Assembly (NCBI GenBank): GCA_900543695.1 | Contig: UQSG01000001.1 | Span: 10,136-74,135, forward strand | Source: an uncultured Clostridium sp. | Lineage (GTDB): Bacteria; Bacillota; Clostridia; UBA1212; UBA1255 | Length of the DNA: 64,000 nucleotides | Direction: 5' to 3' | Shown here: positions 3,940-26,381 of the stretch, piece after piece | Layout: each line of letters opens with the position of its first letter | How positions within the stretch are numbered: position 1 is the first letter of the stretch | The notes under the pieces: generated by a model | The model's input: the letters and a program-made list of their open reading frames with translations, nothing else | Database searches by the model: none | Told to the model about the DNA's origin: nothing | Made by a program: the position numbers and the translations under genes

Positions 3940-6900
3940 TTATACATGTGCCGCCAGTGCAAAGATTCCGCCGGCTGCATCCGCCTCACTGGCGATGATT
4001 CGCAGCTCTTTCATTTCTTTAAATTCACCGAAGTCCAATTCCAGCAGGTTGAACACCGTGCTGCAGCACTCAATCGCGCGGTTTTTGCACCAGAGGCTCC
4101 GCTGCGGATAGGCCGGAGGCTGAGCCTGCCGGTAATCCGTTTCTCCCGGCGCGACGGGCATCGCAGGAATCTCGCTTCGGTCCGTATCCGGCACATATGT
4201 TGCAAACCCCGCAATCACCTCATTTCCGAAGCCCATATCGGCAGTGCCGGGATAATAAACATCATAGAGATATATGGGACGAAAATACGAGTCTTTTTTC
4301 ACGGCCTCCGCCTCTGCGCGGAAAATTCTGCTGAATACGTCATGGTTGTCGATAAAAGCGCTGAAAAGCACGTAAAGCTTTTTCATTTTCCGGCCTTCAA
4401 GCGAAATCGTGACAACTGGATGCTTCTCTTTGCTGAATGGAAGGAACCCGTTCGGATTCAGAGAAAGCGGGACGGAGGGCAAAATGGGAATGGCTCCGTA
4501 CTGCTCCCAAAGTCCTTTCATAAAGGAGTCCGGGCCCTGCATCATATGGCCATGCGAAGGATGCAGACCGATTTCCCTCCAGTACGCGCTCGGCTTGCAC
4601 GCCTCGTCCGGGATCGGGATCGGGACGACCTGCGCATGCGCCGGCGCGGCTTCGATCTCCAGCGGATAATGGATCGGGCCCTGCAAAGTGGCTTTGTTCT
4701 TACCGGGAGAAAAAAGAATCTCACCCGAGCGGATTGGGAAAACGATCGTTCCGTTTTGCTTCGGCAGAACGGTTCCCTCCGCAGTCAGAAGCTGTCTGCC
4801 AATCAGGAGCTTCCATCCGCCTGTAAGCGCCTTTTCAGACTGATTCCAGACTTCCACTAAAACGGAATTTTGCCCTGCCGCAGCGGCAGCGCGGCAATAT
4901 ACCGCGGGTAAAGAAACCAGCGCGCAGGGATGCAGGAATTCCCTGCCTCCAGCCCGCAGGCGCAGAAAGAGCATTCTTCTGGCAAAATTGAGAATTCCGA
5001 ACCATCCGTAGCATTCGTATTTTTCCAGCAAATCGCGGCGAACAGTTCCCGTGAGTTTATTATTCTGCCATTCCAGCGAGGAGAAAACACCGCAGCGGTC
5101 TTCCACGCCGATCAGCTCCGCATCGCCTTCTATCCGCAGAGAAAAAGAATCTCCGCAGGCCGCCGTCATCTCATAGGTGCAGCGGATCTGAATGGGTTCC
5201 CAAGAGCAGGATACCGTAAGATTTCTTCCGGAGCCTGCTTCAAATTCTACGCTGCTCCAGCCGCAGTGCAGCTCCGGCTCAAGCGTCCATTTTTTCCCTT
5301 CCGCTTCGGCCGTAACGCGGAAAGACGGCGGGCAAAGAACGCGTATAATCTTACGCGTGTCATCCTCTATTTGCAGCTGCATCGAAAAGCCGTTCGTTTT
5401 GGACGTGTAGCTGATTTTGACGCCAGGCAGCTGCAGAGAAGCCTCCGGCCAGTCCTCCGGAATACACGGCGCAATTACCGTTTTATTCTCCGGCATATCG
5501 CGCTTCAGGCCGAAAATCGACTCGATAACAGCCTGAGAAAATACCGCTGCCGAAGGAGAAAAATAAGCAAATCTTTTTTCGTTCGCCGTTTCCGGCCAGG
5601 ATCCGCGCTGATAGCTGCCGCACACTCTGCGCGCAATAAAGGACAGCGGACGCACGGCTTCTTTTTTCATGCCGACAGAGGCGTACGCAGCAGAAGCAAA
5701 CGGCTGCATGTCCGAGCCGCACTGCATTCCCCACGTGGGGACGCCCCAATACGCATGATCGCCAAAGTGATTGGACTGATAAATTTCGCCCTCCGGACCA
5801 GTCATTCGATGCAGCAGGTGATCCAGCGCAGAAACTTTATCAGGATCGTCAATTTCATCGTATAGGATGGGATAAGTAATGCCGTGATACGTTGTTTCCA
5901 GACGAAGCTCTCCGGAAATATCTTCGTACCATGCCGGTCTGCCGAGATCCTTCAGCCATAGGGTTCGATACCATTCCGCCCTGCATCTGCCCGCTTCGGC
6001 GGAATAAAACTCTGCCTCCTCCGGCTTTCCCAGGATCGATTTGATGTAGGACATGATTTCCATCATTCTCACGCCTTCGATTCCGGTTGCCGCACCCTTT
6101 CCCGGGGTGCTTTCGAAATCCTCCTGATTTCCGATCTGCGTTCCCCAGCCGATTACGCCGCTGCCAACGGGATCGTATTCCGCAAAGCTCTGCCATAAAG
6201 CTTTTTCCAGAAAAGGCTCCGCTTCCTCGGCAAAGGCGAGGTCTCCTGTCATTTTAATATAATGCTCTACTTCCCGGAAAAAAAACTGATTATTTCCGCC
6301 CCAGTCACGGCGCGCCGAACCATCGGGGCACAGATCAGGGATCGCGCCGCTTTCAAATACGCGCTGCATCTGGCTGCGGAGACATTCCCGCACTCTGTCG
6401 AATCGGCCATTCCATTCTTCTGCCGCAGTATGCTCCATATGCCACATCGTAGGCCAGTGCTGAATGCTTTCAATCCAGCCGTAAGGACGAAGCCATGCAT
6501 ATTCCACATTCAGCAGCGCATGTCCGAATGCTTCGTTCAGCGCAGCATCCGGAGTATGAATCCGCCACTGTGCCAGAAGATCATCATAATAGCGGATGAC
6601 GCGTTCTTCCTCTTTTACCGGATCGCATCCGGCCAGCTCGACAGCACGCTCTTCCTGTTCTGAAAATCCAACGACGGCAAACAAATCCGTTCCCGTTCCG
6701 TTTGCCACTGCATACGTGCCGTACCTTCCGAAATCGCCCTCTAAAGACATAATCTTGAGATCGGAAAAGTTCCCCTTTACCGCCGTGACGAGCGGACGCT
6801 CTTCGCGCCGGATCAGGACCGTATTGCCGGACAGCTCAGCCGAGCCATGCTCGCAGTCGATTTTTTCTCCGGCCATGCTCTGATTGGGAGAGAAATGCAT

Positions 6901-11052: not shown

Positions 11053-12174
11053 TCATGCATTGTTTTTTCTGCGCCGGATCACAATCCCAGCCGTCGCGCC
11101 AATGAGAAACGCCGCTGAAATGCCGAGCAGAAGTCCGGAATCACCGGTTGACGGGTTCGGCTTCTCCGGATCGGGATTCTGGTCCGGGTTCTGATCATCC
11201 GGATCGACAGGAATCTCAGGATCAACCGGATCCTCCGCCTCCGCCGTCTTACTGAGCTTCAGCGCATCCAGACGCGCACAGAATCTTCCGGAGCCATTGT
11301 CAACGCTAGAAATCGTGATTTTATGAATTCCTGCGGCCAGCTCTATCTCGCCCAGCTCCTGCTCTTCAAGCGTCCAGCCGCCGTCATGGTACAGATTGAC
11401 CGGCTCGCCAATCTCCTGACCATCGATCGCAATCTGAACGGAGCAGCTGTCATTGTTTAAGATGTAGGCAAGAGAAACGTTGTATTTTCCGGACTGCGGA
11501 ACAACGAGAGACACCGTTTCCAGAGAACGTCCAGCTTCATAGAAGTCCACGTTGACTATGGCGTCAACCGGCAGCGCTTCATGCGTGTAATTGCTTTCCA
11601 GATGGAATTCATCAGATTTGGTATATGCGTTTCCTTCAAATTCAAAGACAATTTCATCCGAGGGCGTCAGCTCCTCCAGGGTAAGATAATCCAGCAGCGC
11701 GCAGTAATACGCCGACTCCTGACTTGTAAAGGTCAGCGTATGCGTGCCTGCGGACAAAGTCATCAGGCCGACCGTTTTTTTACCAGCCTCCCAGCCGGCG
11801 CCGTTGTTCAGATTGATCTGACTGTCAATTACAGTGCCGTCAATTTTCATTTCTAAAATTCCGCCGTCCTGGTTCAATACGTATCCTAAAGTAATGAGAT
11901 AAATAGCTTCCTTTTCTACAGTGAACGTAGTTTCCAGAGCGTTTCCTGCCTCATAAAAGTTTACGTTCGCCGCACTTTCTACCGGGAGCGCCTCATGCAC
12001 AAAAGGCACCTCGAGAAAAAATTCTCCAGTTTGTGTCCATTCCTGATCTTCCAGCTCGAAGGTGATCTGCTCCTCGGCCGCACCTGCCGGAAGCAGGCTG
12101 CAAGCAAAAAGCGCCGCAACCACAAAGAAAATTAGGAAGCTAGCTTTACTTTTTCTTAATCCATGTTTTACCAT
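11053..12174 (-). CDS. Secreted surface protein with two tandem ~125-aa carbohydrate-binding-like beta-sandwich repeats, Pro/Asp linker and C-terminal transmembrane anchor
   Basis: Start reassigned to the internal Met (MVKHGLRKSKASFLIFFVVAALFAC), which follows RBS AAGGAGGA-N9-ATG. Repeat 1 ITFELEDQEW..LDYLTLEEL and repeat 2 IVFEFEGNAY..LDALKLSK are clearly homologous. Linker DPVDPEIPVDPDDQNPDQNPDPEKPNP. C-terminal LLLGISAAFLIGATAGIVIRRRKNNA. Confidence 0.55.
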   Translation of the reverse strand: MVKHGLRKSKASFLIFFVVAALFACSLLPAGAAEEQITFELEDQEWTQTGEFFLEVPFVHEALPVESAANVNFYEAGNALETTFTVEKEAIYLITLGYVLNQDGGILEMKIDGTVIDSQINLNNGAGWEAGKKTVGLMTLSAGTHTLTFTSQESAYYCALLDYLTLEELTPSDEIVFEFEGNAYTKSDEFHLESNYTHEALPVDAIVNVDFYEAGRSLETVSLVVPQSGKYNVSLAYILNNDSCSVQIAIDGQEIGEPVNLYHDGGWTLEEQELGEIELAAGIHKITISSVDNGSGRFCARLDALKLSKTAEAEDPVDPEIPVDPDDQNPDQNPDPEKPNPSTGDSGLLLGISAAFLIGATAGIVIRRRKNNA

Positions 12175-12338
12175 TTTAAAAATCCTCCTTTTCTTTTGAC
12201 AACTGTTCTGCCTAAAAAGATACCCCAAACATACATTCTTTTAAATAGACATTATCGTTTTTTTGTTGGACAATTCATAACACATTTTTTTGTAAAAAAT
12301 GTTTGGCGATAAGAAAATCTGGATATTTTTGTAAAAAA

Positions 12339-13906: not shown

Positions 13907-15100
13907 TTATGCCTGCGCCTCGGCAGCAGGATAATGCTTCAGCATAACAAGCGGTTCATATGCGCTGGCATTTTCGACGAGCACGCCGTTCGAAGCGGCA
14001 GGATAAGAAACAAAAAATTCATCTTCGCTTTTCTGTCCAAAGCGCAGCATGGTCGCCGCAGCACAGCGCTGCCCGGCCAGCTTGCCGTAGCCCTGCACAA
14101 CGATGCAGCCGTATGCGGTGTCATCCGTGATCCGTGCAGAGCAGCCTGGATATACAGTCAGCTCTTTTGCCGCAATGTACTCGTTTCCGTATACAATCTG
14201 CTTTACCATATAGCTTTCCGTTTGTTCCAAAATAATGGGCGGACGGAAATAGTGTTCTTTATATTGCGGATCGATGTTCTTTTCCCAGTCCATCATTTCA
14301 ATAACATAGTCCGGATCTCCCCAATGCTCCGGCGGACAGTTTTCATAGAGGAAGCTGTCGTCATAGATTTCGCTGTCAGTAATATTTTCGAAGACCGCAT
14401 TTACGTCCGAATTCCACTGCGGTTCATAAGTAAGATAGGAGCCGGGAGCATGCAGCACTCCGGGCGGCGTATACCAGCCGGTTCCCAATTCGATCCGATA
14501 CGCTCTGGAAAGCTCTGTGATCCGCAGATCCCGCTTTTGATAGTCCCTCAGACGTTCCCGCAGATCATCCTTGGTGGTATCCGCAGTAAATCCAAAATAA
14601 GTGTGCGGAAATTTTCCGGGATAGTTATTATATTGCGGCGGATAATAATACGCCTCCGGTTTTCCCAGCTTTCCGACGCGCGCTGCAGCTTCAAAGCCCA
14701 GATGCATATGATGGAACAGAGGTCCCTCGTAATCAAAAAATTTGGAGTACATCGGCCACGTCTGGTGCCGTCTGTAACAGTTCTCTCCGATCATTTCTTC
14801 CCGAAGCGTATCGACAAATGCCTTCAGCGTGATTCTTTCCCCGCTGCAGCCATCCAGGTTTACATAGCTCATACCTTCGTCCGGCGCGGCGTCGGGGCCG
14901 TTCATTGCTGTAATTACAGAAGAAAACCAGCGTTCCTTAATGGAACCGCGTTTTGTGCCAAGCGCATAATAATCATCGGGATGCAGCCGCAGACGTCTGC
15001 CCGCCGTTCCGAAGCGGCGCGGTACGAATGTCGGGATAAGCGGAAGAACACCGCCGCGATCCTGAAAAAATGAATTTATAATTTCTTTTTCTGAACTCAT
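13907..15100 (-). CDS. Type-I phosphomannose-isomerase-like cupin protein (putative sugar aldose-ketose isomerase)
   Basis: 397 aa. Segments KFFDYEGPLFHHMHLGFE, EAYYYP and GTGWYTPPGVLHAPGS..EPQWNSDVNAVF parallel the Zn-binding and cupin motifs of class I PMI (KLLD..SIQVHPDD; ECWYII; FYYVPSGTLHA..ETQQNSDATYRV) as recalled. RBS AAAGGAAGAG. Confidence 0.45.
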   Translation of the reverse strand: MSSEKEIINSFFQDRGGVLPLIPTFVPRRFGTAGRRLRLHPDDYYALGTKRGSIKERWFSSVITAMNGPDAAPDEGMSYVNLDGCSGERITLKAFVDTLREEMIGENCYRRHQTWPMYSKFFDYEGPLFHHMHLGFEAAARVGKLGKPEAYYYPPQYNNYPGKFPHTYFGFTADTTKDDLRERLRDYQKRDLRITELSRAYRIELGTGWYTPPGVLHAPGSYLTYEPQWNSDVNAVFENITDSEIYDDSFLYENCPPEHWGDPDYVIEMMDWEKNIDPQYKEHYFRPPIILEQTESYMVKQIVYGNEYIAAKELTVYPGCSARITDDTAYGCIVVQGYGKLAGQRCAAATMLRFGQKSEDEFFVSYPAASNGVLVENASAYEPLVMLKHYPAAEAQA

Positions 15101-15447
15101 TTCATCTCTTCCTTTCTATATATTCTGTATATCAGTGTATAAATAAAAAGAGATTCTCTCAATGTACAATTTCTTGTTATCCATGGACAAATGCGTAAAA
15201 CCGGCTGCGGAAACGGAAGACGGCAAAATGTAAACCCAATGAGAAATGGATCACGGCAGATCTGACAATGGGCGCCGTCGAATCGAAATTTGCAGATATT
15301 ATCTGGCAAAATGAAGCAATTTCATCCGCCGGGCCTGCAAGCAAAGCCAACAATTGCTGGGCTGGAAGAAGAGCACATCTTTTACTGTGCTGAGGAGGAG
15401 CTCGAATATCTGCGCCGCCTGGTTGCAGAATACGAGGAGGAATAGAC

Positions 15448-15757
15448 ATGCAGGACTTCTTTCTTGATCGTCTTAATAAGAGTATTGCTGCAGGCTGGCT
15501 GGTTCTGGCCGTTATTGTGCTGCAGCCTGCTCTTTTAAGAATGCGTCTCGCCGGTTCTGCTTCTTGAAGGCGAGCCCCGGGAATTCATGATTTCCGGCAA
15601 GGATGAAACAGTTCTGGTTTACGTCTATGAAAGCCCGGCAGCCGCAGCGAAGCAGCAAGGGCTTGTTTCCAGCGACGGTTTTAGAATAATAATAAAGCAA
15701 AACGAAAACGAGTCATCCGAGATCATCTACGAATGGATTTCAGCGCCGCATTGGTAG
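15448..15757 (+). pseudogene. Apparent frameshifted remnant of a small membrane-anchored protein gene
   Basis: ATG at 15448 encodes MQDFFLDRLNKSIAAGWLVLAVIVLQPALLRMRLAGSAS then stops. The +1 frame from ~15539 continues ..VSPVLLLEGEPREFMISGKDETVLVYVYESPAAAAKQQGLVSSDGFRIIIKQNENESSEIIYEWISAPHW and stops at 15757. A one-base indel near 15530-15545 would join the two. Lies in a ~740-bp region that is otherwise non-coding. Confidence 0.3.
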
Positions 15758-15840
15758 CTCCGCGGCAACACGATCGCATTCTATGTCGGTACGGATGCGG
15801 CGGGCGCTTCCCCTTTCCGTTCTTCTTCGAGCCCTGTTTA

Positions 15841-16566
15841 TTATAAAACCTTAGAAAGAAAGTCCTTCGTCCGTGCGTGCTGCGGATTTCCAAACAGCTC
15901 CTCCGGCGTGTTTTGTTCGATGATCACGCCTTCATCCATAAACAGGACGCGGTTTGCCACCTCTTTTGCAAATCCCATCTCGTGTGTTACCACAATCATC
16001 GTCATGCCTTCATCCGCCAGCTCGTGCATCAGAGACAGCACCTCGCCTACCATTTCCGGATCCAGCGCGCTCGTCGGTTCGTCAAACAGCATAACCTCCG
16101 GATTCATGGCAAGCGCCCGCACGATCGCAACACGCTGCTTCTGCCCTCCGGAAATCATGGAGGGATACGCGTTGACCTTGTCCGCAAGCCCGATCCGTTT
16201 CAGCAGCCGGTTCGCATTTTCCGCCGCCTCTTCCTTTGTTTGCAGCTTCAGCTTTACCGGAGCAAAAGAAATATTTTCCAGAATTGTAAAATGAGGAAAT
16301 AAATTAAAATGCTGAAAAACCATCCCCATGCTGCAGCGGATTTTATTAATATCCACATTTGGTGCCGTAATATCCACGCCTTTAAAAAGCACCTTTCCGC
16401 TCGTGGGCGTTTCCAGCAGGTTCAGGCAGCGCAGGAACGTGCTCTTTCCCGAGCCGGAAGGGCCTATCACGACAACCTTTTCATTTTTTTGAATTTTCTC
16501 GCTGATACCGTTTAATACGATTTTTTTGCCGTCAAACGTCTTTACGAGATTTTCAGTTTCGATCAC
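15841..16566 (-). CDS. Polar amino acid-type ABC transporter ATP-binding protein (GlnQ/HisP-like)
   Basis: 241 aa. Walker [10 protein letters not shown]. Signature [15 protein letters not shown]. Walker [13 protein letters not shown]-loop VVTHEM. Start overlaps the permease stop by 14 nt. Confidence 0.9.
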
Positions 16567-18622
16567 TTCTGTTCAATCTCCTTTCAAACCGCTTAAATAC
16601 GGCAGACAATCCAAATACCAGAATCAGATAAATCAGCGCCACGAATAAAAGCGTAAAGAACGCATCCGCCGTCCGGCTCCGAACCAATTCTCCGGCCCGT
16701 GTGAGATCGATCACTCCAAGATATCCGATTACAGAAGTTTCCTTCAGTACCGCGATAAATTCATTGCCAAGAGCCGGCAGGATATTTTTGAATGCCTGCG
16801 GCAGCACGATGCTCTTCATCGTCGTGACCTGTGACAGCCCGAGCGACCGTCCCGCCTCGGTCTGCCCCTTATCTACGGAATTGATCCCCGCGCGTATAAT
16901 CTCAGAAACGTAAGCGCCAGAATTGATGCTGAAAGCAAAAATACCAATTAATACCGCTCTGTCCGAGAAAACGAATATGACGTTGTAAGTAATCAGAAGC
17001 TGCACCACGACCGGCGTGCCGCGGATTACCGTCGTATAAAATTCCGCAATAAAATTCAGAAACCGCAGCACAGGATTCCTCTTTTTTGCAAGGATCGTCT
17101 GATGGTTCCACACCTTAACGATCGCGATCAGCATTCCGATTATGACGCCGAAGCCCGTCGAGGCCACCGCCACGAGCAGCGTATTCCCCAGACCCTCCAG
17201 AAACAGCTTGTACCGATTGTCCCGGATAAAGGTTTTATCGATCATCTCTTTAAAATATGAGACAATTCCCTGAAAAAAGCGAACGAAGGCGTTTCCCTCC
17301 TCCTGAGGAGCTTCCCCGGCAGGCGCAGAAGCACCGGAGGCCGTGAAAATATTTTTCAAACGCATTTTTCCGACGCCGGAAAATGCCGGGGCGTCGCTGT
17401 ACAGGCCCTCCGCCGCGTCATATAAAACGGGCACGATTACGCCGTCGTCCTCATTCTGCCTGAGTTCCTCACATTTCGCAGCCAGGTCTGTTTCCTGTGT
17501 CCAAAGCGCGTCCTGCGCCTTTGCCCATTCCTCATTCCCATTCTGATCGACCAGCAGGATTCCCTGATCCAGCGCCGTTTCCTGCCAAAGCTCCGGCAGC
17601 GCGCCGCTGCGGTACGTTATTACGTTCCAGCCGATTTCTTTCAGCAATTCAAAAAAAGAATTGATCCATTCCCGGTTCCAGGTGTATCCCGAATTCTTTG
17701 GGTTTGCAAAAAAATCGGATACGATCAGGTCCATTCCGTAACGGTATCCCTCCGTACCGAACAGCTGCCCGCTGCGCAGGGCAAACGGCACCGTAATACG
17801 ATCTCCCGAGGTAATAATCTCCGCAGTATAAACGTATGGCTTCTCTGCCGTCCAGACGTTTTTTTCGGTAAAATCCTCGATTTCAATCCCGGAAACGTTC
17901 GCGCTGGCATTCCCTCCCGACAGAATATCAATTCCTTCCAGAAGAAACGAGCCCTTTTCCGCACCGTCCGGATCGTAAACAGCAATCGAAACGTCCGTTT
18001 TCACGTCTTCCTCCCGCGGATTAAACAGGTTGAGCGCAAAGGAAACCGTACCGGCCTCCGGATCCGTCTCAACATCCACCGAAACAATCGCCGGAGCGCT
18101 GCTGAATATCAGCTCAATCCGATCTGCAAGGCAGGCGCCGGATACAGACGCATCCGAAGCGCGTTCAAGCAGTACAATCGTATTTTCCCCCGTATGCAGC
18201 AGCGGCGCGATATTTTCTCCGGCCAGAGCGCCGTTTACATAGACCGCGGCAGCTCCCTGGGATGAGCCGAAATCAAGCAGGACGACTTCCGCAGGAGGAT
18301 TTGCCAGAGAAATCGTTTTCCGGTACCACACGCGCGTTTTCCCCTCCGGAAGCGCCGAATAAGAAGGAAGGAGAACCGTGCCGCCGGAAGCAAGAGATTC
18401 CGGAACCGACTGAGGAATTTCTTCGTCAGACGCGTCATCCGTAAATAACTCCCATTCTCCTGCCAGTGAAACGGTCTCTCTGGTATTTCCCACAATCACG
18501 GAGGACTGGCCTCCGTCTTCTGCAGCGGAAAAGGAGCCGCAGCAAAGGGCGGCAAGACAGAGCGTTAAAATTAAAATTCTGCCCGGTAAGCGGAGCGTAT
18601 TATTTCTTATGTGTTTCATCAA
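16553..18622 (-). CDS. Fusion protein: signal peptide, catalytically truncated GH2-glycosidase-like extracytoplasmic region (~460 aa), then a polar-amino-acid-type ABC permease domain (~220 aa)
   Basis: 689 aa in one open frame. N-terminal [32 protein letters not shown]2 sugar-binding jelly-roll pattern [52 protein letters not shown]2 sandwich-domain motif [14 protein letters not shown]. Start of the GH2 TIM barrel [56 protein letters not shown], but no catalytic acid/base or nucleophile segments follow. Then HisM/GlnP-like permease ..[72 protein letters not shown]. Start overlaps the stop of the upstream GH2 gene (ATGA). Confidence 0.6.
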
Positions 18623-20958
18623 AAGCCCTCGAATTCGTCAAAGCCGCATTTCTCCAGCGCTTTCAGGTAAGCGTCGTAGTCGATATCTATAATGTTCGTA
18701 AAATAATGGTTGCGATGCGTGCCGCCATCCTTCTGCCATTCGATCAGGTAAAAGTTCTTCTCCCCGTCTTTCAGCTTCAGCTCTCCGATCCGCGTAGACG
18801 CGTCAGCCGGAAGCAGCGCTTCCCCTTCCAGCACAAGCCTTCCGTCCTCCGTAATGTTTTTCACGGTAAAAGAAACCTCGGCGTCCGCTGTCGTATCGTT
18901 CACGCCGTACAGCGGCAGGAAGCCGTTCTCCGGCTCCCGGAACATCAGGCATACGGGATTCTGAGACCGTTTAATAAAATGGTACGCAAGCTTCTTTGTG
19001 AAATAATAGTCTACAATCGCATCCGAAATCTGCGGCCAGCCGTCCAAAAGGTTCCACCAGATAATGCCGGTCCGCCTCCATTTGGACGCCCGGAAGCGTT
19101 CAATGAAGAATTTCTTTGCCTCCGCCTGCGAAATCTGACTTTGTTTTGCAAAGTTTTCCAGATCCTGCGCCTCCGTTTTGCCGAACAGCGTCTTCACCTG
19201 ATTTGCCATCAGCCGGATCCTGTAAGAATATGCCACGTCCGGAAGCAGCTCCATGCAGGCCGCATGCACCTGCCATTCGTCCCTGGAAAGGCCGTTTTCT
19301 TTAAAGCAAGGCCAAAGCTCTTCCTTGGAAAGGAATTTTTTCAGAGATTCCGGAGACGGACAGCCATGATACCCCGTTTCACTTGCAAAATGGCAGACCG
19401 TCGTATTATAGTAAGGCCCCTTGAAATAATCGCGCGGGCCCCACAGATGATCCTCGGACGTCGGTTTTCCGCCGACATAAGATTCTTCGGTAATATAGGG
19501 AGAGCTCGGGAGGTATGGGCGGGTAAAGTCATACGCCTCGCAGGCTCTTGCCAGCACTTCGCGCGTTACGATATTTTTATCGGGATTTCTGCGGATGCCG
19601 CCCCAGTCCTGATACGCGTAGTCGCCCTCGTTGTCTCCGGCCCACAGCACAAGGGACGCATGGTTGCGCAAGCGCTTGATAATATGCTTCGCTTCGGTCT
19701 CCAGCATTTCGAAAAACCTGCGTTCCTGCGGATATACGGCGCAGCCCATGGCAAAATCCTGCCACACCATGATCCCGTGCCGGTCACAGAAATCAAAGAA
19801 GAAATCATCCTCATAAACATTGCCGCCCCAGCAGCGCGTGATATTGCAGCCCAGGTCGTCCAGCAGCTCAAGCGCTTTCGGAAGCCTGTTAATATCATTG
19901 GAATGAAACGCGTCTACCGGAACCCAGTTCGATCCCATGGCAAATACTTTCTTGCCGTTGATCTTAAAGCAGAACTCGCCGTGCCCTTCCTCGTCCGTGA
20001 CGTTTGTCCGATCGAGCTCTACGGTCCGTACGCCGAAATTCACCGTATAGGTATCGCACAGCTCGTCTTTATAATATAAGTTCACTTTCGTCTCATAAAG
20101 ATTTGGTTCTCCTGCGTTTTTCGGCCACCAATATTTGCAGTTCTGGATCCAGAAGCGGAAATGGCCCTCTGTGTGCCAAAGCCTCTTTTTGAAGTAAAAC
20201 CGGCTGTCTCCGCAGATTCCCTCCACTTCCAGGGAATACTCTTTCAAGAGGTCTCTTGAGACGTCCACGTGGAAAAAAATGGATGCGGCGGCAGAACGTC
20301 CCGCAGGATCGATACCGGTCGTGTACAGAAACGCATCGTCGATGCGGTCGGCCTTCCTGCGCAGAATGGAAACAGGCTTCCAGATCCCGCATGATACGAT
20401 CCGGGGCATGATATCCCATCCGAACATATGCGGCGCCTTGCGGAGATAAAGCGAATCATACGCATACTCCTGCGCATTGCTCGACGGCGGCAGGCGGAAC
20501 TCCCGTGCCGCAATGGAAGCCGGCCAGATATGGACCACCAGCTCGTTTCTGCCGTTCTTCAAATCGGGAAGCCCGATTTCGTAAGAAAGATACATGTTGT
20601 CGGTGTGGCGCACCAAAGCGCCGTTCACGTAGATGTCCGCAATGGTGTCGATTCCTTCAAATTTTATGTACTCCGTGCCGTCCGGATCACTGAGCTCAAA
20701 TTCGTTGTAATACCATACATGCCGATTTTCAAGGTCCTGCATCGCCAGGGGATTAAGGCCGAAAAACGGATCCCCGATGACATTGGCATGATAAAGGTCA
20801 AGCTCAAAATTTCCGGGAACGCTCGCAGGAATCTCAGGCAGCTTTTTTTCTTTCAGCGAAGCAATGTCCCGAATCTGATCCGCATATTCCCGGCAGATAT
20901 AATTTTCCTCGTAAGCGATCCGCCAGCCGCTTCCGAGCTTCAAAATGGTTTTGTCCAT
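18619..20958 (-). CDS. GH2 beta-mannosidase (cytoplasmic)
   Basis: 779 aa with no signal peptide. GH2 sugar-binding domain (..IKFEGIDTIADIYVNGALVRHTDN..). TIM barrel with acid/base segment LVLWAGDNEGD and nucleophile region FASETGYHG. Beta-mannosidase-type C-terminus. RBS AAGGAG-N8-ATG. Confidence 0.8.
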   Translation of the reverse strand: MDKTILKLGSGWRIAYEENYICREYADQIRDIASLKEKKLPEIPASVPGNFELDLYHANVIGDPFFGLNPLAMQDLENRHVWYYNEFELSDPDGTEYIKFEGIDTIADIYVNGALVRHTDNMYLSYEIGLPDLKNGRNELVVHIWPASIAAREFRLPPSSNAQEYAYDSLYLRKAPHMFGWDIMPRIVSCGIWKPVSILRRKADRIDDAFLYTTGIDPAGRSAAASIFFHVDVSRDLLKEYSLEVEGICGDSRFYFKKRLWHTEGHFRFWIQNCKYWWPKNAGEPNLYETKVNLYYKDELCDTYTVNFGVRTVELDRTNVTDEEGHGEFCFKINGKKVFAMGSNWVPVDAFHSNDINRLPKALELLDDLGCNITRCWGGNVYEDDFFFDFCDRHGIMVWQDFAMGCAVYPQERRFFEMLETEAKHIIKRLRNHASLVLWAGDNEGDYAYQDWGGIRRNPDKNIVTREVLARACEAYDFTRPYLPSSPYITEESYVGGKPTSEDHLWGPRDYFKGPYYNTTVCHFASETGYHGCPSPESLKKFLSKEELWPCFKENGLSRDEWQVHAACMELLPDVAYSYRIRLMANQVKTLFGKTEAQDLENFAKQSQISQAEAKKFFIERFRASKWRRTGIIWWNLLDGWPQISDAIVDYYFTKKLAYHFIKRSQNPVCLMFREPENGFLPLYGVNDTTADAEVSFTVKNITEDGRLVLEGEALLPADASTRIGELKLKDGEKNFYLIEWQKDGGTHRNHYFTNIIDIDYDAYLKALEKCGFDEFEGF

Positions 20959-21732: not shown

Positions 21733-22641
21733 TTATTCAAACAGCGCTCTTACATAGTCCTCCGGCGAAAAGGGCTGCATATCCCCGATGCCTTCTCCTA
21801 CGCCGACCAGGCGGACCGGAATGCTCAGCTCGTTGCAAATGGAGACGATAATGCCGCCTTTAGAGGAACCGTCCAGCTTTGTAAGAACGATTCCGGTCAG
21901 CTCCGCCACCTCGGAAAATGCCTTAGCCTGATTTACCGCGTTCTGTCCCGTCGTGGCGTCCAGCACGAGAAATGTTTCACGCCGAACGTCCGGCAGCTCT
22001 CTGGCCACGACACGCGCCATCTTCGCAAGCTCATCCATAAGATTTTTCTTGTTATGGAGCCGTCCCGCCGTATCGCAGATCAAAACGTCGGCTTCTCTGG
22101 CCTTCGCGGCTCTGCAGGCGTCAAACAGCACTGCCGCGGGATCCGCGCCCTCTGCCTGCCGGATCAGCTCCGCCCCGGAGCGTTCTGCCCAGACGGCAAG
22201 CTGATCGCCCGCCGCCGCACGAAACGTATCGCCGGCCGCAAGAAGCACCTTTTTCCCCGCGTTCCTGTACAGATGGGCAATTTTACCGATGGACGTCGTT
22301 TTCCCGACGCCATTTACGCCGATCACCGTAATAACTGCAGGCACGTCGTCCAAATCAAGGCCGCGCGCTCCGATATCGAGCAGCCCTGCAATAATCTCCT
22401 GCAGCTCGGAACGGATCTGCGAGGCCTCCGTCAGCTTCTTCGTCTTTACGGATTCCCGCAGCTTTTTCAGGATTTCCTCCGTCGTCTGCACGCCGAAGTC
22501 GGACGAGATCAGCACATCCTCCAATTCCTCAAAAAGCGCTTCATCAATTTTGCCAAACCCCGCGAGAATCGTATCAACCGTTCCCAGAAAGCTCTCCTTT
22601 GTTTTCTTCAGCCCGCTTTTCAGCTTATCGAAAAATCCCAT
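21733..22641 (-). CDS. ftsY: Signal recognition particle receptor FtsY (short NG-domain form)
   Basis: N domain plus SRP GTPase G domain: GVNGVGKTTSIGKIA, DTAGR, TKLDG..KGG. Start set at MGFFDKL (RBS AAAGGAG-N9-ATG). The ORF could begin 9 nt earlier, at 22650. Follows smc as in many Firmicutes. Confidence 0.85.
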   Translation of the reverse strand: MGFFDKLKSGLKKTKESFLGTVDTILAGFGKIDEALFEELEDVLISSDFGVQTTEEILKKLRESVKTKKLTEASQIRSELQEIIAGLLDIGARGLDLDDVPAVITVIGVNGVGKTTSIGKIAHLYRNAGKKVLLAAGDTFRAAAGDQLAVWAERSGAELIRQAEGADPAAVLFDACRAAKAREADVLICDTAGRLHNKKNLMDELAKMARVVARELPDVRRETFLVLDATTGQNAVNQAKAFSEVAELTGIVLTKLDGSSKGGIIVSICNELSIPVRLVGVGEGIGDMQPFSPEDYVRALFE

Positions 22642-22668
22642 GGCCGGCATCTCCTTTCCCTGTTCTCC

Positions 22669-25600
22669 TTATGAATCCATTTTCAGCGATATTACTTTCG
22701 AAATTCCCTTTTCCTCCATCGTTACGCCGTAAAGGGAGCCGGCGTTTTCCATCGTGCCTTTCCGATGGGTAATCAGAATAAACTGCGTGCCTCCGTCGAT
22801 TTGACGCAAATAATCCGAAAGCCTGTATACGTTGGCATCATCTAACGCCGCTTCGATTTCGTCCAAAAGGCAGAACGGAGAGGGATGCATTTTCAAAATT
22901 CCAAACAGCAGTGCGATTGCGGTCAGCGCGCGCTCTCCGCCGGAAAGCAGCAGCATATTCTGGAGCTTTTTCCCGGGAGGCTGCGCCTGGATTTCGATGC
23001 CGCATTCCAGGATATCCTGCGTTTCATCCAGAACAATATCTGCCTTCCCGCCGCCGAACAGCTGCCGAAAAACCTCCTTGAAATTATCACGGATCAGGCG
23101 GAATTGCTCCGAGAACTGGCGGCGCATCACAGCGTTCAGATCTGATATCACTTTTTGGAGCTTTGCTTTTGCTTCGCTGAGGTCTCCCATCTGGGCGGAA
23201 AGAAACGTATGGCGCTCTTTTGTGCTTTCGTATTCCTCCACGGCATTGACGTTTACCGCGCCGAGCGCCTTTATGCTGGCTTTCAGCTCTTTAATGCGGC
23301 GGGAGGCTTCCGTATAATTTTCCGTACGTTTTCCTCCCGTCAGCTCCTTTGCCGAGGAATACGCCAGCTCGTATTCTTCCCACAATCTGTTTTTATTTGC
23401 GTTGATCTCGCTTTCTTCCCGTACCTTTTTGATTTCCGCCTGATTCAGACGCTCCGTGCAGCGCGCAATCTGCTCGCTGGTTTCCGTAATTCTGCCGAGC
23501 ATTCCGCCAAGCTCCGCGTCAATTTCCCGTTTCATTTCTTCGTAATTTCTCTGCGTTTCGGCTTCCGCCTGCCGTTCATCGGAAATGCCGGCGATGGAAA
23601 TTTCATTCTCTGTATTGCTGTTTTCAAGCTGGCGGACCGCTGCTTCGCAGTCCCGGATCTGTAGGCTGCAATATTCGATTTGTTCCTTCCCCTCAGAGAG
23701 GGAACGCTCGTATCGTTTTCGATCCTCCTCTGCCTTTTGGAGTCGGGCGCGGAGATCGGCTTCCTTGACTCTCCGCTCCATCAAATTCTGGTTTTTTGCT
23801 TCCAGGAGCCGTTCTGCTTCTTCTCTGCGAAGGTCCGCCAGACGCAGCCGTTCCTCCGCCCTGGACTGCTCCCCCGCGAGCCGCTCCTGTGCTTCTTCCG
23901 CCGATTCAATTGCGCGCCGCGCATCCAGCATATTGCTGATCTGGAGCTTCAGCTCCGCTACAAGCCGTTGCCGGCGCGCCGTTTCGCCGGCCTGTCGGTC
24001 CCGCATTGCCGTGCATTTTGCCGTCCACTGAGAAAGCGAAACCTCCAGGGCACGCATTTCCTTCATGAGCGCATCGCGTTCTTTTTCGATTCCCTGCGCA
24101 GACGTCTGATAGGAATCGAGCGTTTTGCGGATTTGTATGAGCAAAGCGCTATTATCCGCCACGGCTTTCTCCAGCTCGGGTATTTCTCTCGTTCTGGAAA
24201 GCGTTCCGGCGGAGGCGCGTCCTTTTTCTGTGCTGCCGCCTGTAATCGCTCCCGAGGTCCGCAGGATATCTCCGTCCAGCGTAACGCACATGACGGCGTA
24301 GCGTGTTCTGCCCGCAAAGAGCAGCGCATGATCCAGCCGGTCGAATACGGCGGTGCGTCCAAGCAGGCTTTCGACCGCTTTTTTATATTTTCCCTCAAAT
24401 TGCACAAGCCCGGAGGCCGTGCCCAGGAAGCCTTCCGCCCGTTCCAGCATACGAACCGTTTCCGGATCGAGCGGCCGGCCGTTTACCGCAGTCAGCGGCA
24501 GAAACGTCGCTCTGCCGTATCTCCCCTTTTTCAGATATTCGATCGCCTTTTTGGCGTCCTCCTCCGTCTCGGTTACAATATTTTGGTATGCCTGACCAAG
24601 CGCCGTTTCAATTGCGGTTTCATATTCTGCCGGGACGCGCAGAATCTGCGCTACGGCGCCGCAAATGCCCCGTCCAAAGTCCGGATTCGATTTGCACAGT
24701 GACAAAACCTTCTTAACGCTGTAGGCGTATCCCTCGTAATCTGCCTCCATTTCCCGGATCGCTTTAAGGCGCGCCGTATCTCCCTGAAGACGCGCCGACA
24801 GGACAGCGGCACGCTCCGATTCTTTTTTTTCTCCGCTTTTTGCCGTCTCCAGCGCTTCTGTTTTATTTTTATAAAGCTGTTTGGCGTCCTCAAGGGACTC
24901 CTCTGTTTTCTGCCGGTTTTCCTCCGCCGCTTCGATTTCCTCCGCCGCAATGGCAGTGCTGGAATCCAGAACGGCCAATTCTTCATCAATGGCGTTTTTT
25001 CTGTCGGTAATCATTTCGATTTGCTTCTGATACGATTCGGCGGCGCTGCGCGCGTTTCCCTGCTGCAGCTTGATTTCCAGAATCGCCTCTGATGCAGCGG
25101 AAACCTCTTTTCGGATTTCTTCGGAGGCCTTGAAATCGGCGCGATATTCCTCCTGCAGCGCTTCCGTCTCTGCAAGCTCTGCCTCCAGCGTTTTCTGCGC
25201 CTCCGAACGTTCCCGCTCCGTTTCCTCGATGCGAAGCTCATACGCTCCGTTCTTCTGCTTCTGCTGCTCCTGCTCTGCGGCCAGTCTGTTTTTATTCTCC
25301 TCGGCGCTTTTAATCTTTTCCCGATTGATTTCGATTTCGCTTTTCAGACGCTCGATCTTTTTTTCCAGCGCATACGATTTTTCTTTGCTGGCGTTGATCA
25401 GGCCGGAAAGCAGTCCTGCTTTTTCCGTTTTTTCCGAATTTTCGCGCCGGATGCGTTCCAATGATTTTTCGGCTTCGGTTCTGTCCTGCGTTAAAATTTC
25501 AATGTCATTGATGATTTTTTTCAGGCGCTCTTCCGCAAAATCAATTCCGTCCACGAGCACGCCGACCTCAATGCCGCGCAGCTCATATTTATAATCCAGA

Positions 25601-26244
25601 TATTTTTTCGCCGTTTCAGCCTGCTTTTCCAAGGGCTTCAGCTGCTGCGCAAGCTCGGAAACGATATCTCCTACGCGCAGGAGATTCTGCTCCGTCAGGT
25701 TCAGCTTTCGTTCACTTTCCTGCTTTCGCATTCTGTACTTCATAATGCCGGAGGCATCTTCAAAAATATTTCTCCGGTCCTCCGATTTACTGTTCAGGAT
25801 TTCGTCTACCCTGCCCTGACCAATTAAAGAATAGCCGTCCTTTCCAATTCCCGTGTCGGCAAATAAGAGATGAATGTCCTTCATCCTGCACTGCGCATTG
25901 TTGATCAGATATTCGCTGTCGCCGGAACGATAAAGCCGGCGTGTAATTTTGACCTCGCTGAAATCGATATTCAGAAAACGGTCTTCGTTATCCATGACCA
26001 GAGAGACTTCCGCCATCCCCACGGGCCTCCTGTTTTCCGTACCGGAAAAGATCACATCCTCCATGCGGCTGCCTCTGAGCGTCTTAGGGCTTTGTTCTCC
26101 GAGCACCCATTTCACAGCGTCAGAAATGTTGCTCTTACCGCTTCCGTTCGGGCCGACGACTGCCGTGATTCCCTTATTGAAATCCAGTACGGTTTTATCC
26201 ACAAAGGACTTAAAGCCCTGCATCTCTAATCTTTTTAAATACAA
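22669..26244 (-). CDS. smc: Chromosome segregation protein SMC
   Basis: N-terminal Walker A GPNGSGKSNI after LYLKRLEMQGFKSF. Long coiled coils. Hinge. C-terminal signature LSGGERALTAIALLF and Walker B LDEIEAALD. Likely TTG start (MYLKRLE) 8 nt after RBS GGAGAGA, so the longer ORF to 26277 is probably 5-prime over-extension. Confidence 0.9.
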   Translation of the reverse strand: MYLKRLEMQGFKSFVDKTVLDFNKGITAVVGPNGSGKSNISDAVKWVLGEQSPKTLRGSRMEDVIFSGTENRRPVGMAEVSLVMDNEDRFLNIDFSEVKITRRLYRSGDSEYLINNAQCRMKDIHLLFADTGIGKDGYSLIGQGRVDEILNSKSEDRRNIFEDASGIMKYRMRKQESERKLNLTEQNLLRVGDIVSELAQQLKPLEKQAETAKKYLDYKYELRGIEVGVLVDGIDFAEERLKKIINDIEILTQDRTEAEKSLERIRRENSEKTEKAGLLSGLINASKEKSYALEKKIERLKSEIEINREKIKSAEENKNRLAAEQEQQKQKNGAYELRIEETERERSEAQKTLEAELAETEALQEEYRADFKASEEIRKEVSAASEAILEIKLQQGNARSAAESYQKQIEMITDRKNAIDEELAVLDSSTAIAAEEIEAAEENRQKTEESLEDAKQLYKNKTEALETAKSGEKKESERAAVLSARLQGDTARLKAIREMEADYEGYAYSVKKVLSLCKSNPDFGRGICGAVAQILRVPAEYETAIETALGQAYQNIVTETEEDAKKAIEYLKKGRYGRATFLPLTAVNGRPLDPETVRMLERAEGFLGTASGLVQFEGKYKKAVESLLGRTAVFDRLDHALLFAGRTRYAVMCVTLDGDILRTSGAITGGSTEKGRASAGTLSRTREIPELEKAVADNSALLIQIRKTLDSYQTSAQGIEKERDALMKEMRALEVSLSQWTAKCTAMRDRQAGETARRQRLVAELKLQISNMLDARRAIESAEEAQERLAGEQSRAEERLRLADLRREEAERLLEAKNQNLMERRVKEADLRARLQKAEEDRKRYERSLSEGKEQIEYCSLQIRDCEAAVRQLENSNTENEISIAGISDERQAEAETQRNYEEMKREIDAELGGMLGRITETSEQIARCTERLNQAEIKKVREESEINANKNRLWEEYELAYSSAKELTGGKRTENYTEASRRIKELKASIKALGAVNVNAVEEYESTKERHTFLSAQMGDLSEAKAKLQKVISDLNAVMRRQFSEQFRLIRDNFKEVFRQLFGGGKADIVLDETQDILECGIEIQAQPPGKKLQNMLLLSGGERALTAIALLFGILKMHPSPFCLLDEIEAALDDANVYRLSDYLRQIDGGTQFILITHRKGTMENAGSLYGVTMEEKGISKVISLKMDS

Positions 26245-26381
26245 ATTTCTCTCCTCGGCTCCCGGAAAATATTTCAATCAAAGCGGATTTTACAATATTT
26301 TTAAAGAGCTTGTCAACCTTGCGCATCATTATTTATTCCGGTAAAATAGGAAGGAAGCTTGAGAGATTCGGAGGATTCGAT

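Follow-up and report, generated by a model that had tools for sequence, protein, structure and literature searches.

The window, by which we mean the whole 64-kb stretch of DNA that was analysed, carries on its minus strand a gene that joins a glycosidase-like (GH2) ectodomain to a PAAT-type ABC permease. This fusion gene lies between a gene for a GH2 enzyme upstream and a gene for an ABC ATPase downstream, and the features of the locus are as follows.

15841 to 16566, minus strand: GlnQ-type ABC ATPase (Pfam ABC_tran; NCBIfam GlnQ)
16553 to 18622, minus strand: whole fusion ORF (ORF list; homologues at 54-95% identity; frame intact in independent assemblies)
16556 to 17212, minus strand: PAAT-type ABC permease domain with five TM helices, residues 471-689 (Pfam, NCBIfam, identity, dN/dS)
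17213 to 17332, minus strand: linker and 20-residue amphipathic helix, residues 431-470 (pLDDT; stand-alone permeases; P0171, L011)
17333 to 17767, minus strand: GH2 TIM-barrel remnant, residues 286-430 (AlphaFold, alignment, HMMER)
17768 to 18091, minus strand: GH2 Ig-like sandwich with a 14-residue motif, residues 178-285 (Pfam PF00703; AlphaFold; alignment)
18092 to 18490, minus strand: GH2-type N-terminal jelly-roll, residues 45-177 (AlphaFold, Foldseek, BLASTP, HMMER)
18524 to 18622, minus strand: basic N-terminus and hydrophobic stretch, a predicted signal peptide or uncleaved N-terminal anchor, residues 1-33 (Kyte-Doolittle; family alignment)
18626 to 18630, minus strand: Shine-Dalgarno sequence GAGGG, 6 nt 5' of the ATG at 18619 and within the 3'-terminal part of the upstream GH2 gene
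18619 to 20958, minus strand: upstream gene of the GH2 beta-mannosidase clade (Pfam GH2_N2, GH2 and GH2_C; PDB sequence matches)

The fusion gene and its neighbours

A first-pass annotation of this DNA had described a 689-aa open frame, translationally coupled to the gene upstream through an ATGA overlap. The frame is present if translation begins at the TTG at 18622, but the ATG at 18619, giving 688 aa, is the likelier start. The overlap of stop and start also holds, although its sequence differs from that proposed: the junction reads TTGATG, i.e. TGATG, and the TGA of the upstream gene and the likely ATG of the fusion have one nucleotide in common. GAGG-type sites are also found 5' of the start of the long ORF in L001, L005, L007 and L009, such a site being present in all lineages examined, while no usable Shine-Dalgarno site precedes the internal Met460.

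The two neighbours are of the kinds first proposed, a GH2 beta-mannosidase upstream (Pfam, and a PDB match in the beta-mannosidase clade) and an ABC ATPase downstream (ORF list, Pfam). The ATPase gene shares 14 nt with the 3' end of the fusion ORF, and its product matches the NCBIfam GlnQ model with an E-value of 3e-94 at 314.8 bits, below the equivalog cut-off of 379. It is the sole neighbour conserved throughout the family and adjoins the fusion at every locus examined. The upstream GH2 protein, in which no signal peptide is evident, matches PDB sequence 9nfe (CapGH2b, E 1.5e-158), followed by the beta-mannosidases 5n6u and 2vjx; the activity of CapGH2b has been reported (PMC12770490). This gene is missing from L005, L007 and L009. 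In the distant members of the family (~55% identity) the fusion comes directly after ftsY, 23-36 nt downstream on the same strand and with neither the GH2 gene nor the PHP gene, and two genes are inserted between ftsY and the fusion in the window's lineage. As judged from gene order, the link to a beta-mannosidase is lineage-specific and lies outside the conserved unit, so that a mannoside substrate is not to be inferred from this neighbour. A 260-aa lipoprotein encoded next to the ATPase in relatives was considered as a novel binding protein and rejected, as it gave only a weak CBM_4_9-like signal; neither the window nor the distant lineages contain its gene. An Rfam scan of the window returned no match at gathering thresholds, and a scan for promoters and terminators gave consensus-level matches only, near shuffle expectation.

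Orthologues with the same fusion, which the first-pass annotation had proposed to look for, were found in ~20 full-length protein clusters at 54-95% identity, and the fusion is carried by 8 GTDB species. The claim of a single intact reading frame was upheld as well, with no break in independent assemblies. In the NCBI contig of Ca. Egerieisoma faecipullorum the 689-aa frame is unbroken, yet the NCBI annotation consists of the last 230 aa only (from Met460) and leaves 1.37 kb unannotated. Homology-guided start calling cut the entire ectodomain from this record, which points to a blind spot of annotation. The ectodomain evolves ~10 times faster than the transmembrane domain (dN/dS 0.18, with 0.16-0.23 per subdomain, versus 0.019), and ~60 of its positions are invariant across the fusion family. 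The ~20 full-length clusters, the 8 species, the ectodomain dN/dS of 0.18 and the Shine-Dalgarno sequence in every lineage examined together indicate that the fusion is, on this comparative sequence evidence, a real and conserved gene under purifying selection rather than an artefact. Both the truncated NCBI gene call and the faster evolution of the ectodomain could be taken to mean that the ectodomain is a functionless leftover that is tolerated, or that the long ORF is an error of assembly or annotation and the true product is the 230-aa permease beginning at Met460. We consider this very improbable, given that the frame is unbroken both in that NCBI contig and in the ~20 divergent clusters down to 54% identity, that constraint is detected in every ectodomain subdomain and at the invariant positions, that ribosome-binding sites precede the long ORF and not Met460, and that the ectodomain is predicted to fold with high model confidence.

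The GH2-like ectodomain

The hydrophobic stretch near the N-terminus has a Kyte-Doolittle peak of 2.25 centred at residues 18-26, a pattern kept in the family alignment. The next hydrophobic segment begins only at residue 486, and the predicted topology would fit a TM1 with its N-terminus out. Between the two, AlphaFold modelled residues 45-420 with pLDDT of about 70-94, and the top Foldseek matches of the model in the PDB are all GH2 enzymes (6quc, E 1.6e-17, about 375-400 aligned columns). A PDB sequence search with the ectodomain gave no match, and the link to GH2 was made by the fold search and by HMMER searches of large databases, in which matches to GH2-like proteins begin at residue 45 and mostly stop near residue 360. 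The strands of the jelly-roll are modelled at residues 49-174 with pLDDT of about 70-90. No Pfam jelly-roll model matches the fusion protein, and this domain is likewise assigned from the fold search and HMMER. BLASTP aligned it in register with the N-terminal domain of the neighbouring GH2; with an E-value of only 0.002 over the jelly-roll, we rejected a recent duplication of that neighbour as the source of the ectodomain. The Ig-like sandwich is modelled at residues 178-280 with pLDDT of about 90 and matches PF00703 at residues 182-272 with 23.0 bits, exactly the gathering cut-off, and its 14-residue motif aligns with the 'W.PE.P.LY' motif of GH2. Of the TIM barrel, no more than three to four beta/alpha units remain, all from its start; only three strands are modelled (beta1-beta3, at residues 295-300, 334-338 and 356-359), a beta4-equivalent segment (VIVPVLY) has low model confidence, and Pfam gave no match in the fusion protein to PF02836, the complete (beta/alpha)8 catalytic barrel.

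The jelly-roll, Ig domain and beta1-beta3 are homologous to those of a divergent extracellular GH2-like clade (P0027, P0028, P0033 and P0034; 26-34% identity, E down to 1e-27), which has structural Trp residues and the 'W.PE.P.LY' motif in common with the fusion. Unlike these proteins, the fusion ends after the beta4 equivalent and has no conserved acid/base Glu, nucleophile strand or C-terminal domains. Complete GH2-like relatives align with a 'QNE' acid/base motif at beta4 and a later 'INEY' motif. At the QNE position the fusion family has AEG, EDG, VDG or LSG, with no conserved Glu, and the segment bearing INEY, the nucleophile strand and all that follows are missing, homology to the complete relatives running out at about residues 360-430. 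Where beta3 of the relatives ends in a 'DE' motif, the fusion has Gln or Lys in place of the Glu. Proteins of the divergent clade often contain F5/8 type C domains, and some have a C-terminal membrane anchor.

Taking predicted fold and alignments together, the ectodomain is a catalytically dead GH2-like remnant of ~410 aa, made up of jelly-roll, Ig domain and the N-terminal half of the TIM barrel. It offers a case of an enzyme that was halved yet retained by selection. The architecture that had been read from the sequence at the outset, with a signal-like N-terminus, jelly-roll, Ig domain, truncated barrel lacking the catalytic Glu residues and complete PAAT permease, is thus borne out by Pfam, NCBIfam, AlphaFold, Foldseek and alignment, and structure prediction agrees that the GH2 fold was kept and the catalytic residues lost. 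The alternative raised at that stage, an ordinary amino-acid-binding domain at the N-terminus, can be dismissed, since Pfam finds no SBP family in this region and the Foldseek matches identify the fold as GH2. The combination of a glycosidase fragment with a type I permease was not found in the literature searched and appears to be undescribed. By the prevailing view, type I importers require two-lobed binding proteins (SBPs), free or fused, and such binding domains are the only extracytoplasmic ones known in fusion with their permeases.

The permease domain and a candidate binding protein

Residues 429-444 are of low complexity and have pLDDT below 50. The amphipathic helix of the linker also forms the N-terminus of the stand-alone sister permeases, and the region includes Met460; the stand-alone proteins span 93-99% of fusion residues 445-689. 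The permease domain matches Pfam BPD_transp_1 at residues 519-684 (E 7.5e-21; 75.1 bits versus a cut-off of 26.4) and NCBIfam TIGR01726, the N-terminal 3-TM region of His/Glu/Gln/Arg/opine permeases, at residues 472-578 (47.4 versus 42.2). The best full-length NCBIfam models for residues 472-689 are TcyL and GlnP, but the score stays below the respective cut-off for every NCBIfam equivalog (TcyL, GlnP and HisM among them), and substrate specificity is therefore left unassigned. The transmembrane part of the AlphaFold model is poor (pLDDT below 50). In sequence, the 22-residue EAA loop is invariant across the fusion family and all helices are nearly so.

Canonical clostridial PAAT importers, such as those encoded by the P0176, P0177 and P0178 operons, consist of an SBP_bac_3 lipoprotein, a homodimer of a ~230-aa permease and a GlnQ-type ATPase. 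The transmembrane domain of the fusion is 61-81% identical to the stand-alone amino-acid permeases of such SBP_bac_3-permease-ATPase operons, the ATPases agree in type, outer loop 4 does not differ from that of the SBP-dependent sisters, and the canonical loci L014, L026 and L027 have the same 14-nt overlap of permease and ATPase genes. In contrast to these operons, the fusion locus has no SBP gene immediately upstream, the permease bears ~440 aa of signal peptide plus pseudo-GH2 at its N-terminus, and cytoplasmic loop 1 has an insertion of 4-7 residues. In a neighbour-joining tree the transmembrane domains of the fusions form a single clade, whose sister is the SBP-dependent permease P0178. 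By this tree, the fusion has one origin beside SBP-dependent sisters, within a small group of uncultured Clostridia from the gut that comprises Ca. Egerieisoma and its relatives. Only five positions of the transmembrane domain are fusion-specific, i.e. the same in all fusions and not seen in any of the nine nearest sisters; of these, one lies in the cytoplasmic-loop insertion, and TM1, TM3 and TM4 have none. Such similarity to permeases from SBP operons argues for a substrate of the amino-acid type and not a glycan. Residues in the last extracellular loop and TM5 had been taken as fusion-specific signs of a change of docking partner, a reading that we withdrew because SBP-dependent permeases, the nine nearest stand-alone sisters, have them in common. 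The unchanged outer face is itself weaker evidence than it first seems, since the transmembrane domain is so constrained overall.

The absence of a binding-protein gene from the operon, noted in the first-pass annotation, was confirmed: no SBP_bac_3 gene was found in the operon or in the 64-kb window, and the fusion loci examined have no SBP gene in the 6-10 kb around them. A candidate partner is P0353, an SBP_bac_3 lipoprotein that is 61% identical to the SBPs of the sister operons. P0353 and the fusion protein P0004 have the same longest contig reported (515,748 bp) and both occur in sample SRR5903357. From this identical figure and the shared sample, a sister-type orphan SBP apparently shares a contig, and probably a genome, with one fusion gene, the two genes being >10 kb apart. 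The P0353-type SBPs form a distinct subgroup (69-86% identity), and in seven further loci the synteny Alr-SBP-...-ProS is kept and no permease or ATPase gene lies within 10 kb; SBPs at 57-60% identity are directly followed by permease and ATPase. The orphan SBP locus ends at rnc, and the possibility that smc-ftsY-fusion comes immediately after it was rejected, the genes found upstream of smc being those for an M20 peptidase and E2. We infer that the orphan P0353-type SBP would be the partner of the fusion transporter and that its substrate would be an amino acid.

Possible roles of the ectodomain

The reading that we favour, and hold at about even confidence, is an SBP-dependent PAAT importer whose permease carries the catalytically dead pseudo-GH2 ectodomain as an accessory. 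The fusion would have originated from a canonical binding-protein/permease/ATPase operon, and in the translocator the fusion subunit and the GlnQ-type ATPase would each be present twice. A substrate of the amino-acid type would be brought to the permease, whose outer face is unchanged, by a free SBP_bac_3 lipoprotein with its gene at another place in the genome. Both tethered ectodomains would then be accessory modules rather than the substrate receptor; their role might be to bind glycans or the cell surface, to serve as scaffold or stabiliser, or to control the transporter. With the SBP-docking face unchanged and a sister-type SBP surviving as a conserved orphan, there is no need for the ectodomain to have been recruited as a substrate-capture domain, as had been suggested. 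The mannoside or glycan substrate suggested with it finds no support, the mannosidase being absent in distant members and the transmembrane domain resembling amino-acid permeases. Of that initial reading the architecture is supported, and the mannosidase link, the glycan substrate and the capture role are not.

It is possible, although in our judgement doubtful, that the pseudo-GH2 ectodomain is a working receptor that either replaces the SBP or gates amino-acid import on glycan binding, perhaps with the two half-barrels of the homodimer paired above the pore; if true, it would set a precedent, no type I importer being known to use an extracytoplasmic receptor other than an SBP. In the form of a replacement, the ectodomain would pass on to the permease what it had captured, be it a mannoside, a fragment of a glycan or a glyco-amino acid. 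Its location, where sister operons have the SBP gene and GlnP-type permeases have fused binding domains, agrees with such a role, as do the lack of an SBP gene near the fusion loci, the purifying selection on the ectodomain and, in the window's lineage, the translationally coupled beta-mannosidase gene. The mannosidase, however, is absent in the more distant half of the family, the pore-forming helices are of the amino-acid permease type, the outer face is not remodelled relative to the SBP-dependent sisters, and a conserved orphan SBP of the sister type is probably present in one fusion-bearing genome. In addition, ATPase activation in type I importers depends on a two-lobed binding protein moving from open to closed, for which a GH2 fragment has no equivalent. 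We regard replacement of the SBP as unlikely. Less likely still is a non-importing, ATP-driven mechanotransducer or sensor similar to FtsEX, in which the ectodomain would control or sense something in the cell envelope. The position of the fusion just 3' of ftsY in distant lineages recalls the E. coli gene order ftsY-ftsE-ftsX, mechanotransducing ABC systems typically have membrane subunits with large ectodomains other than SBPs, and the cytoplasmic-loop insertion is a further point in its favour. Yet the two genes inserted between ftsY and the fusion in the window's lineage suggest that this adjacency is not constrained, no envelope hydrolase partner is conserved nearby, and both the transmembrane domain and the ATPase are those of a type I importer, very near bona fide amino-acid importers and with the EAA loop and helices nearly invariant.

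Fusion of a receptor to a permease has precedent in L. lactis GlnPQ, where substrate-binding domains are fused N-terminally to the permease. As predicted from sequence, the fusion resembles GlnPQ-type importers of Firmicutes in having a signal sequence, an extracytoplasmic domain and a PAAT-type transmembrane domain, in that a homodimer would present two tethered ectodomains, and in total length (about 690-710 aa). The fused domain differs: that of the GlnPQ type has the two-lobed SBP fold, whereas that described here has a GH2 fold and no SBP_bac_3 match in Pfam. The principle of such fusions is treated for OpuA in PMC11065425. A second comparison is with rBAT (SLC3A1) and 4F2hc (SLC3A2), the heavy chains of heteromeric amino-acid transporters in eukaryotes, in which a glycosidase-family ectodomain with no demonstrated catalysis is attached to an amino-acid transporter and has a role in stability and trafficking rather than in capturing substrate (PMC8537225). 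By analogy, the fusion may likewise place a non-catalytic glycosidase-type ectodomain on an amino-acid transporter. The eukaryotic SLC3 ectodomains are GH13 proteins with a whole barrel, joined by a disulfide between two subunits to an SLC7/APC transporter, whereas the fusion combines half a GH2 barrel and an ABC transporter subunit in one polypeptide; the two are not homologous, and the likeness is convergence at most. The family gives bacteria a counterpart of rBAT and 4F2hc, whose 'fake glycosidase' ectodomains are themselves unexplained, and it provides a natural test of what an ectodomain contributes to an importer, be it glycan localisation, stabilisation or regulation.

The permease and its truncated GH2 ectodomain

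The fusion gene is followed directly by an ATPase gene on the same strand of the window:

16553-18622, minus strand: fusion open reading frame, 689 aa (ORF list)
15841-16566, minus strand: GlnQ-like ATPase gene (Pfam, NCBIfam), the next gene, with a 14-nt overlap with the permease gene

The reading frame opens with TTGATG, and because a GAGGG Shine-Dalgarno sequence lies 6 nt ahead of the ATG, translation is likely to begin at ATG 18619, giving 688 aa. This ATG and the upstream gene's stop codon, TGA, have one base in common; the junction reads TGATG, not ATGA as stated in the first-pass annotation. Pfam identified a BPD_transp_1-type permease domain of the binding-protein-dependent kind over residues 519-684 (E 7.5e-21) and a GH2 Ig-like domain at residues 182-272, the latter scoring exactly at the curated cut-off. 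NCBIfam assigned residues 472-689 to the His/Glu/Gln/Arg/opine permease group, while none of its equivalog models for the permease part attained its own cut-off.

An AlphaFold model computed from a family alignment of 17 sequences was confident over residues 45-420, comprising a jelly-roll, an Ig sandwich and a three-stranded alpha/beta segment, with the membrane part poorly modelled. The top PDB matches of the ectodomain in Foldseek were all GH2 enzymes, with E-values down to 1.6e-17 over about 375-400 columns. Residues 1-470, searched exhaustively with HMMER against 1.84 billion representatives, matched 186 proteins. Just a handful of these were representatives from the fusion family; the remaining matches examined were GH2-like proteins of 650-1430 aa, and across the list the match mostly stops near residue 360. 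Complete GH2-like relatives carry 'QNE' after beta4 and 'INEY' further on in the alignment. The fusion family has AEG, EDG, VDG or LSG at the QNE site, and the sequence beyond it, including the INEY part, is absent. On this evidence, the first-pass annotation had described both the GH2-permease architecture and the loss of catalytic residues correctly.

Several complete GH2-like relatives (P0027, P0031 and P0047) finish with a hydrophobic helix and then a basic tail, and they appear to be extracellular enzymes anchored via a C-terminal membrane helix. Proteins of this type are plausible donors for the fusion. No close solved structure was found for their clade.

Distribution and selection

A search for orthologues, as the first-pass annotation had proposed, recovered the same full-length fusion in about 20 protein clusters, with identities of 54-95%. 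Of the 185,579 GTDB species genomes scanned, 8 contained the ectodomain; each is a MAG of uncultured gut Clostridia, and the hosts are chicken, human, water buffalo and water deer. Among named organisms the closest is Ca. Egerieisoma faecipullorum (GTDB genus UMGS1537, family UBA1255, order UBA1212). The sole gene call in its NCBI record is a 230-aa permease starting at Met460, with 1.37 kb left unannotated, although the same contig has the 689-aa frame unbroken:

4624-6000 of locus L011 (DVMM01000143.1): ectodomain-coding region without a gene call, corresponding to window 17243-18622

The architecture is thus masked in the public record by homology-guided start selection. Four further lineages have a GAGG-type ribosome-binding site ahead of the long frame; the internal Met460 has none. 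Measured against relatives about 95% identical, the ectodomain had a dN/dS of 0.18 (its three parts, taken separately, 0.16-0.23), the permease part (TMD) 0.019, the ATPase 0.025 and the upstream GH2 0.048. The fusion gene is genuine and under selection; both artefact and dead remnant are effectively excluded as readings.

Permease origin, a candidate binding protein and possible function

A search with the TMD only found ordinary Clostridia amino-acid permeases of about 230 aa that are 61-81% identical to it, and the closest of these belong to canonical SBP_bac_3-permease-ATPase operons. The ectodomain takes the place where the binding-protein (SBP) gene normally lies. The fusion arose once: a neighbour-joining tree groups the 16 fusion TMDs in a single clade that contains no stand-alone member, with an SBP-dependent permease (P0178) as sister. 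An apparent clustering of fusion-specific residues in the final outer loop and in TM5 was rejected, as these residues are common to the nine nearest SBP-dependent sisters. Against those sisters just five TMD positions are truly fusion-specific (K514, V551, S582, T657 and F670), K514 lying within a 4-7-residue cytoplasmic insertion. Because the outer residues are shared and so few positions differ, the outer, SBP-docking face of the permease is essentially unchanged. A related PAAT permease, P0251 (379 aa, NCBI-sourced; TMD 62% identical), carries a different N-terminal extension, consisting of a signal peptide and about 110 aa, and BPD_transp_1 is its only Pfam domain. Gain of an N-terminal ectodomain may recur in the clade of P0251 and the fusion.

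A profile search with the SBPs of the sister operons found an orphan SBP, P0353 (286 aa), 61% identical to them:

6001-6861 of locus L028: P0353 gene (orphan SBP)

No permease or ATPase gene adjoins it; its neighbours encode Ddl, an Alr fusion, a beta-helix protein, a 396-aa protein and ProS. For P0353 and the fusion-family protein P0004 an identical longest contig (515,748 bp) is reported, sample SRR5903357 contains both, and the two are probably co-resident in one genome. P0353-like SBP_bac_3 lipoproteins form a distinct subgroup (69-86% identity) that keeps the Alr-SBP-...-396-aa protein-ProS synteny in seven further metagenome loci (L035-L041), and all seven lack a permease and an ATPase within 10 kb. 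Where identity is 57-60%, permease and ATPase genes come straight after the SBP. The orphan locus does not adjoin the fusion. The P0353-like family is the candidate for the missing partner of the fusion transporter.

Most likely, the system would remain an SBP-dependent amino-acid-type importer that carries the pseudo-GH2 ectodomain as an accessory module, perhaps for glycan or surface binding, stabilisation or regulation. We favour this model because a permease-ATPase pair lacking an SBP, a sister-type SBP lacking a permease and an unchanged docking face are found together. The stronger reading of the first-pass annotation, in which the ectodomain substitutes for the SBP, fits the position of the ectodomain but is unlikely; if true, a receptor role would make the architecture of much greater interest. 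An FtsEX-like mechanotransducer is more doubtful still, the sole hint being the position of the fusion after ftsY. For the accessory-module model, the closest functional parallel comes from rBAT/4F2hc: these ectodomains of a glycosidase family stand beside eukaryotic amino-acid transporters, have no proven activity and serve stability and trafficking (PMC8537225). Full-text literature searches turned up no account of a type I importer permease with a non-SBP ectodomain, whether GH2-derived or of another kind; the fusion family is small and recorded from MAGs alone.

Gene neighbourhood

The window and relatives at 66-67% identity share the order smc, ftsY, PHP-domain gene, GH2, fusion, ATPase. 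The GH2 gene is:

18619-20958, minus strand: upstream GH2 of the beta-mannosidase clade, matching 9nfe (CapGH2b), E 1.5e-158

CapGH2b is a GH2_13 enzyme of biochemically confirmed beta-mannosidase activity (PMC12770490), for which a reversible disulfide was recently shown to act as an on/off switch. The first-pass annotation had proposed a mannoside or glycan fragment as the likely transporter substrate. Relatives about 55% identical lack both the GH2 and the PHP gene, and their fusion directly follows ftsY. The fusion-ATPase pair is the sole unit kept across the whole family. The GH2-fusion association is lineage-specific, and therefore no transporter substrate can be deduced from the GH2.

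The fusion operon lies directly downstream of smc-ftsY (window 21733-26277), and canonical sister operons lie directly upstream of scpA-scpB (L014 9414-10867; L026 and L027 6439-7814); both transporter versions thus adjoin chromosome-condensation genes. Window 15101-15840 (740 bp) holds no convincing gene. At the collinear site two relatives encode, on the opposite strand, a 260-aa lipoprotein with a weak CBM_4_9-like signal (L001 13226-14017, L033 12829-13611), of which tblastn found no remnant in the window. A 397-aa protein (window 13907-15100, minus strand) had no match in Pfam, NCBIfam or PDB sequences; its counterpart in relatives (83% identity; L033 13839-15041) likewise lies beside the FGGY sugar kinase gene, and the family, whose context is sugar utilisation, is uncharacterised. 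A 391-aa secreted protein (window 11053-12228, minus strand) with two CBM6/CBM35-like repeats and a weak C-terminal LPXTG-type cell-wall anchor signal has a conserved downstream counterpart in relatives (L033 16759-17862).
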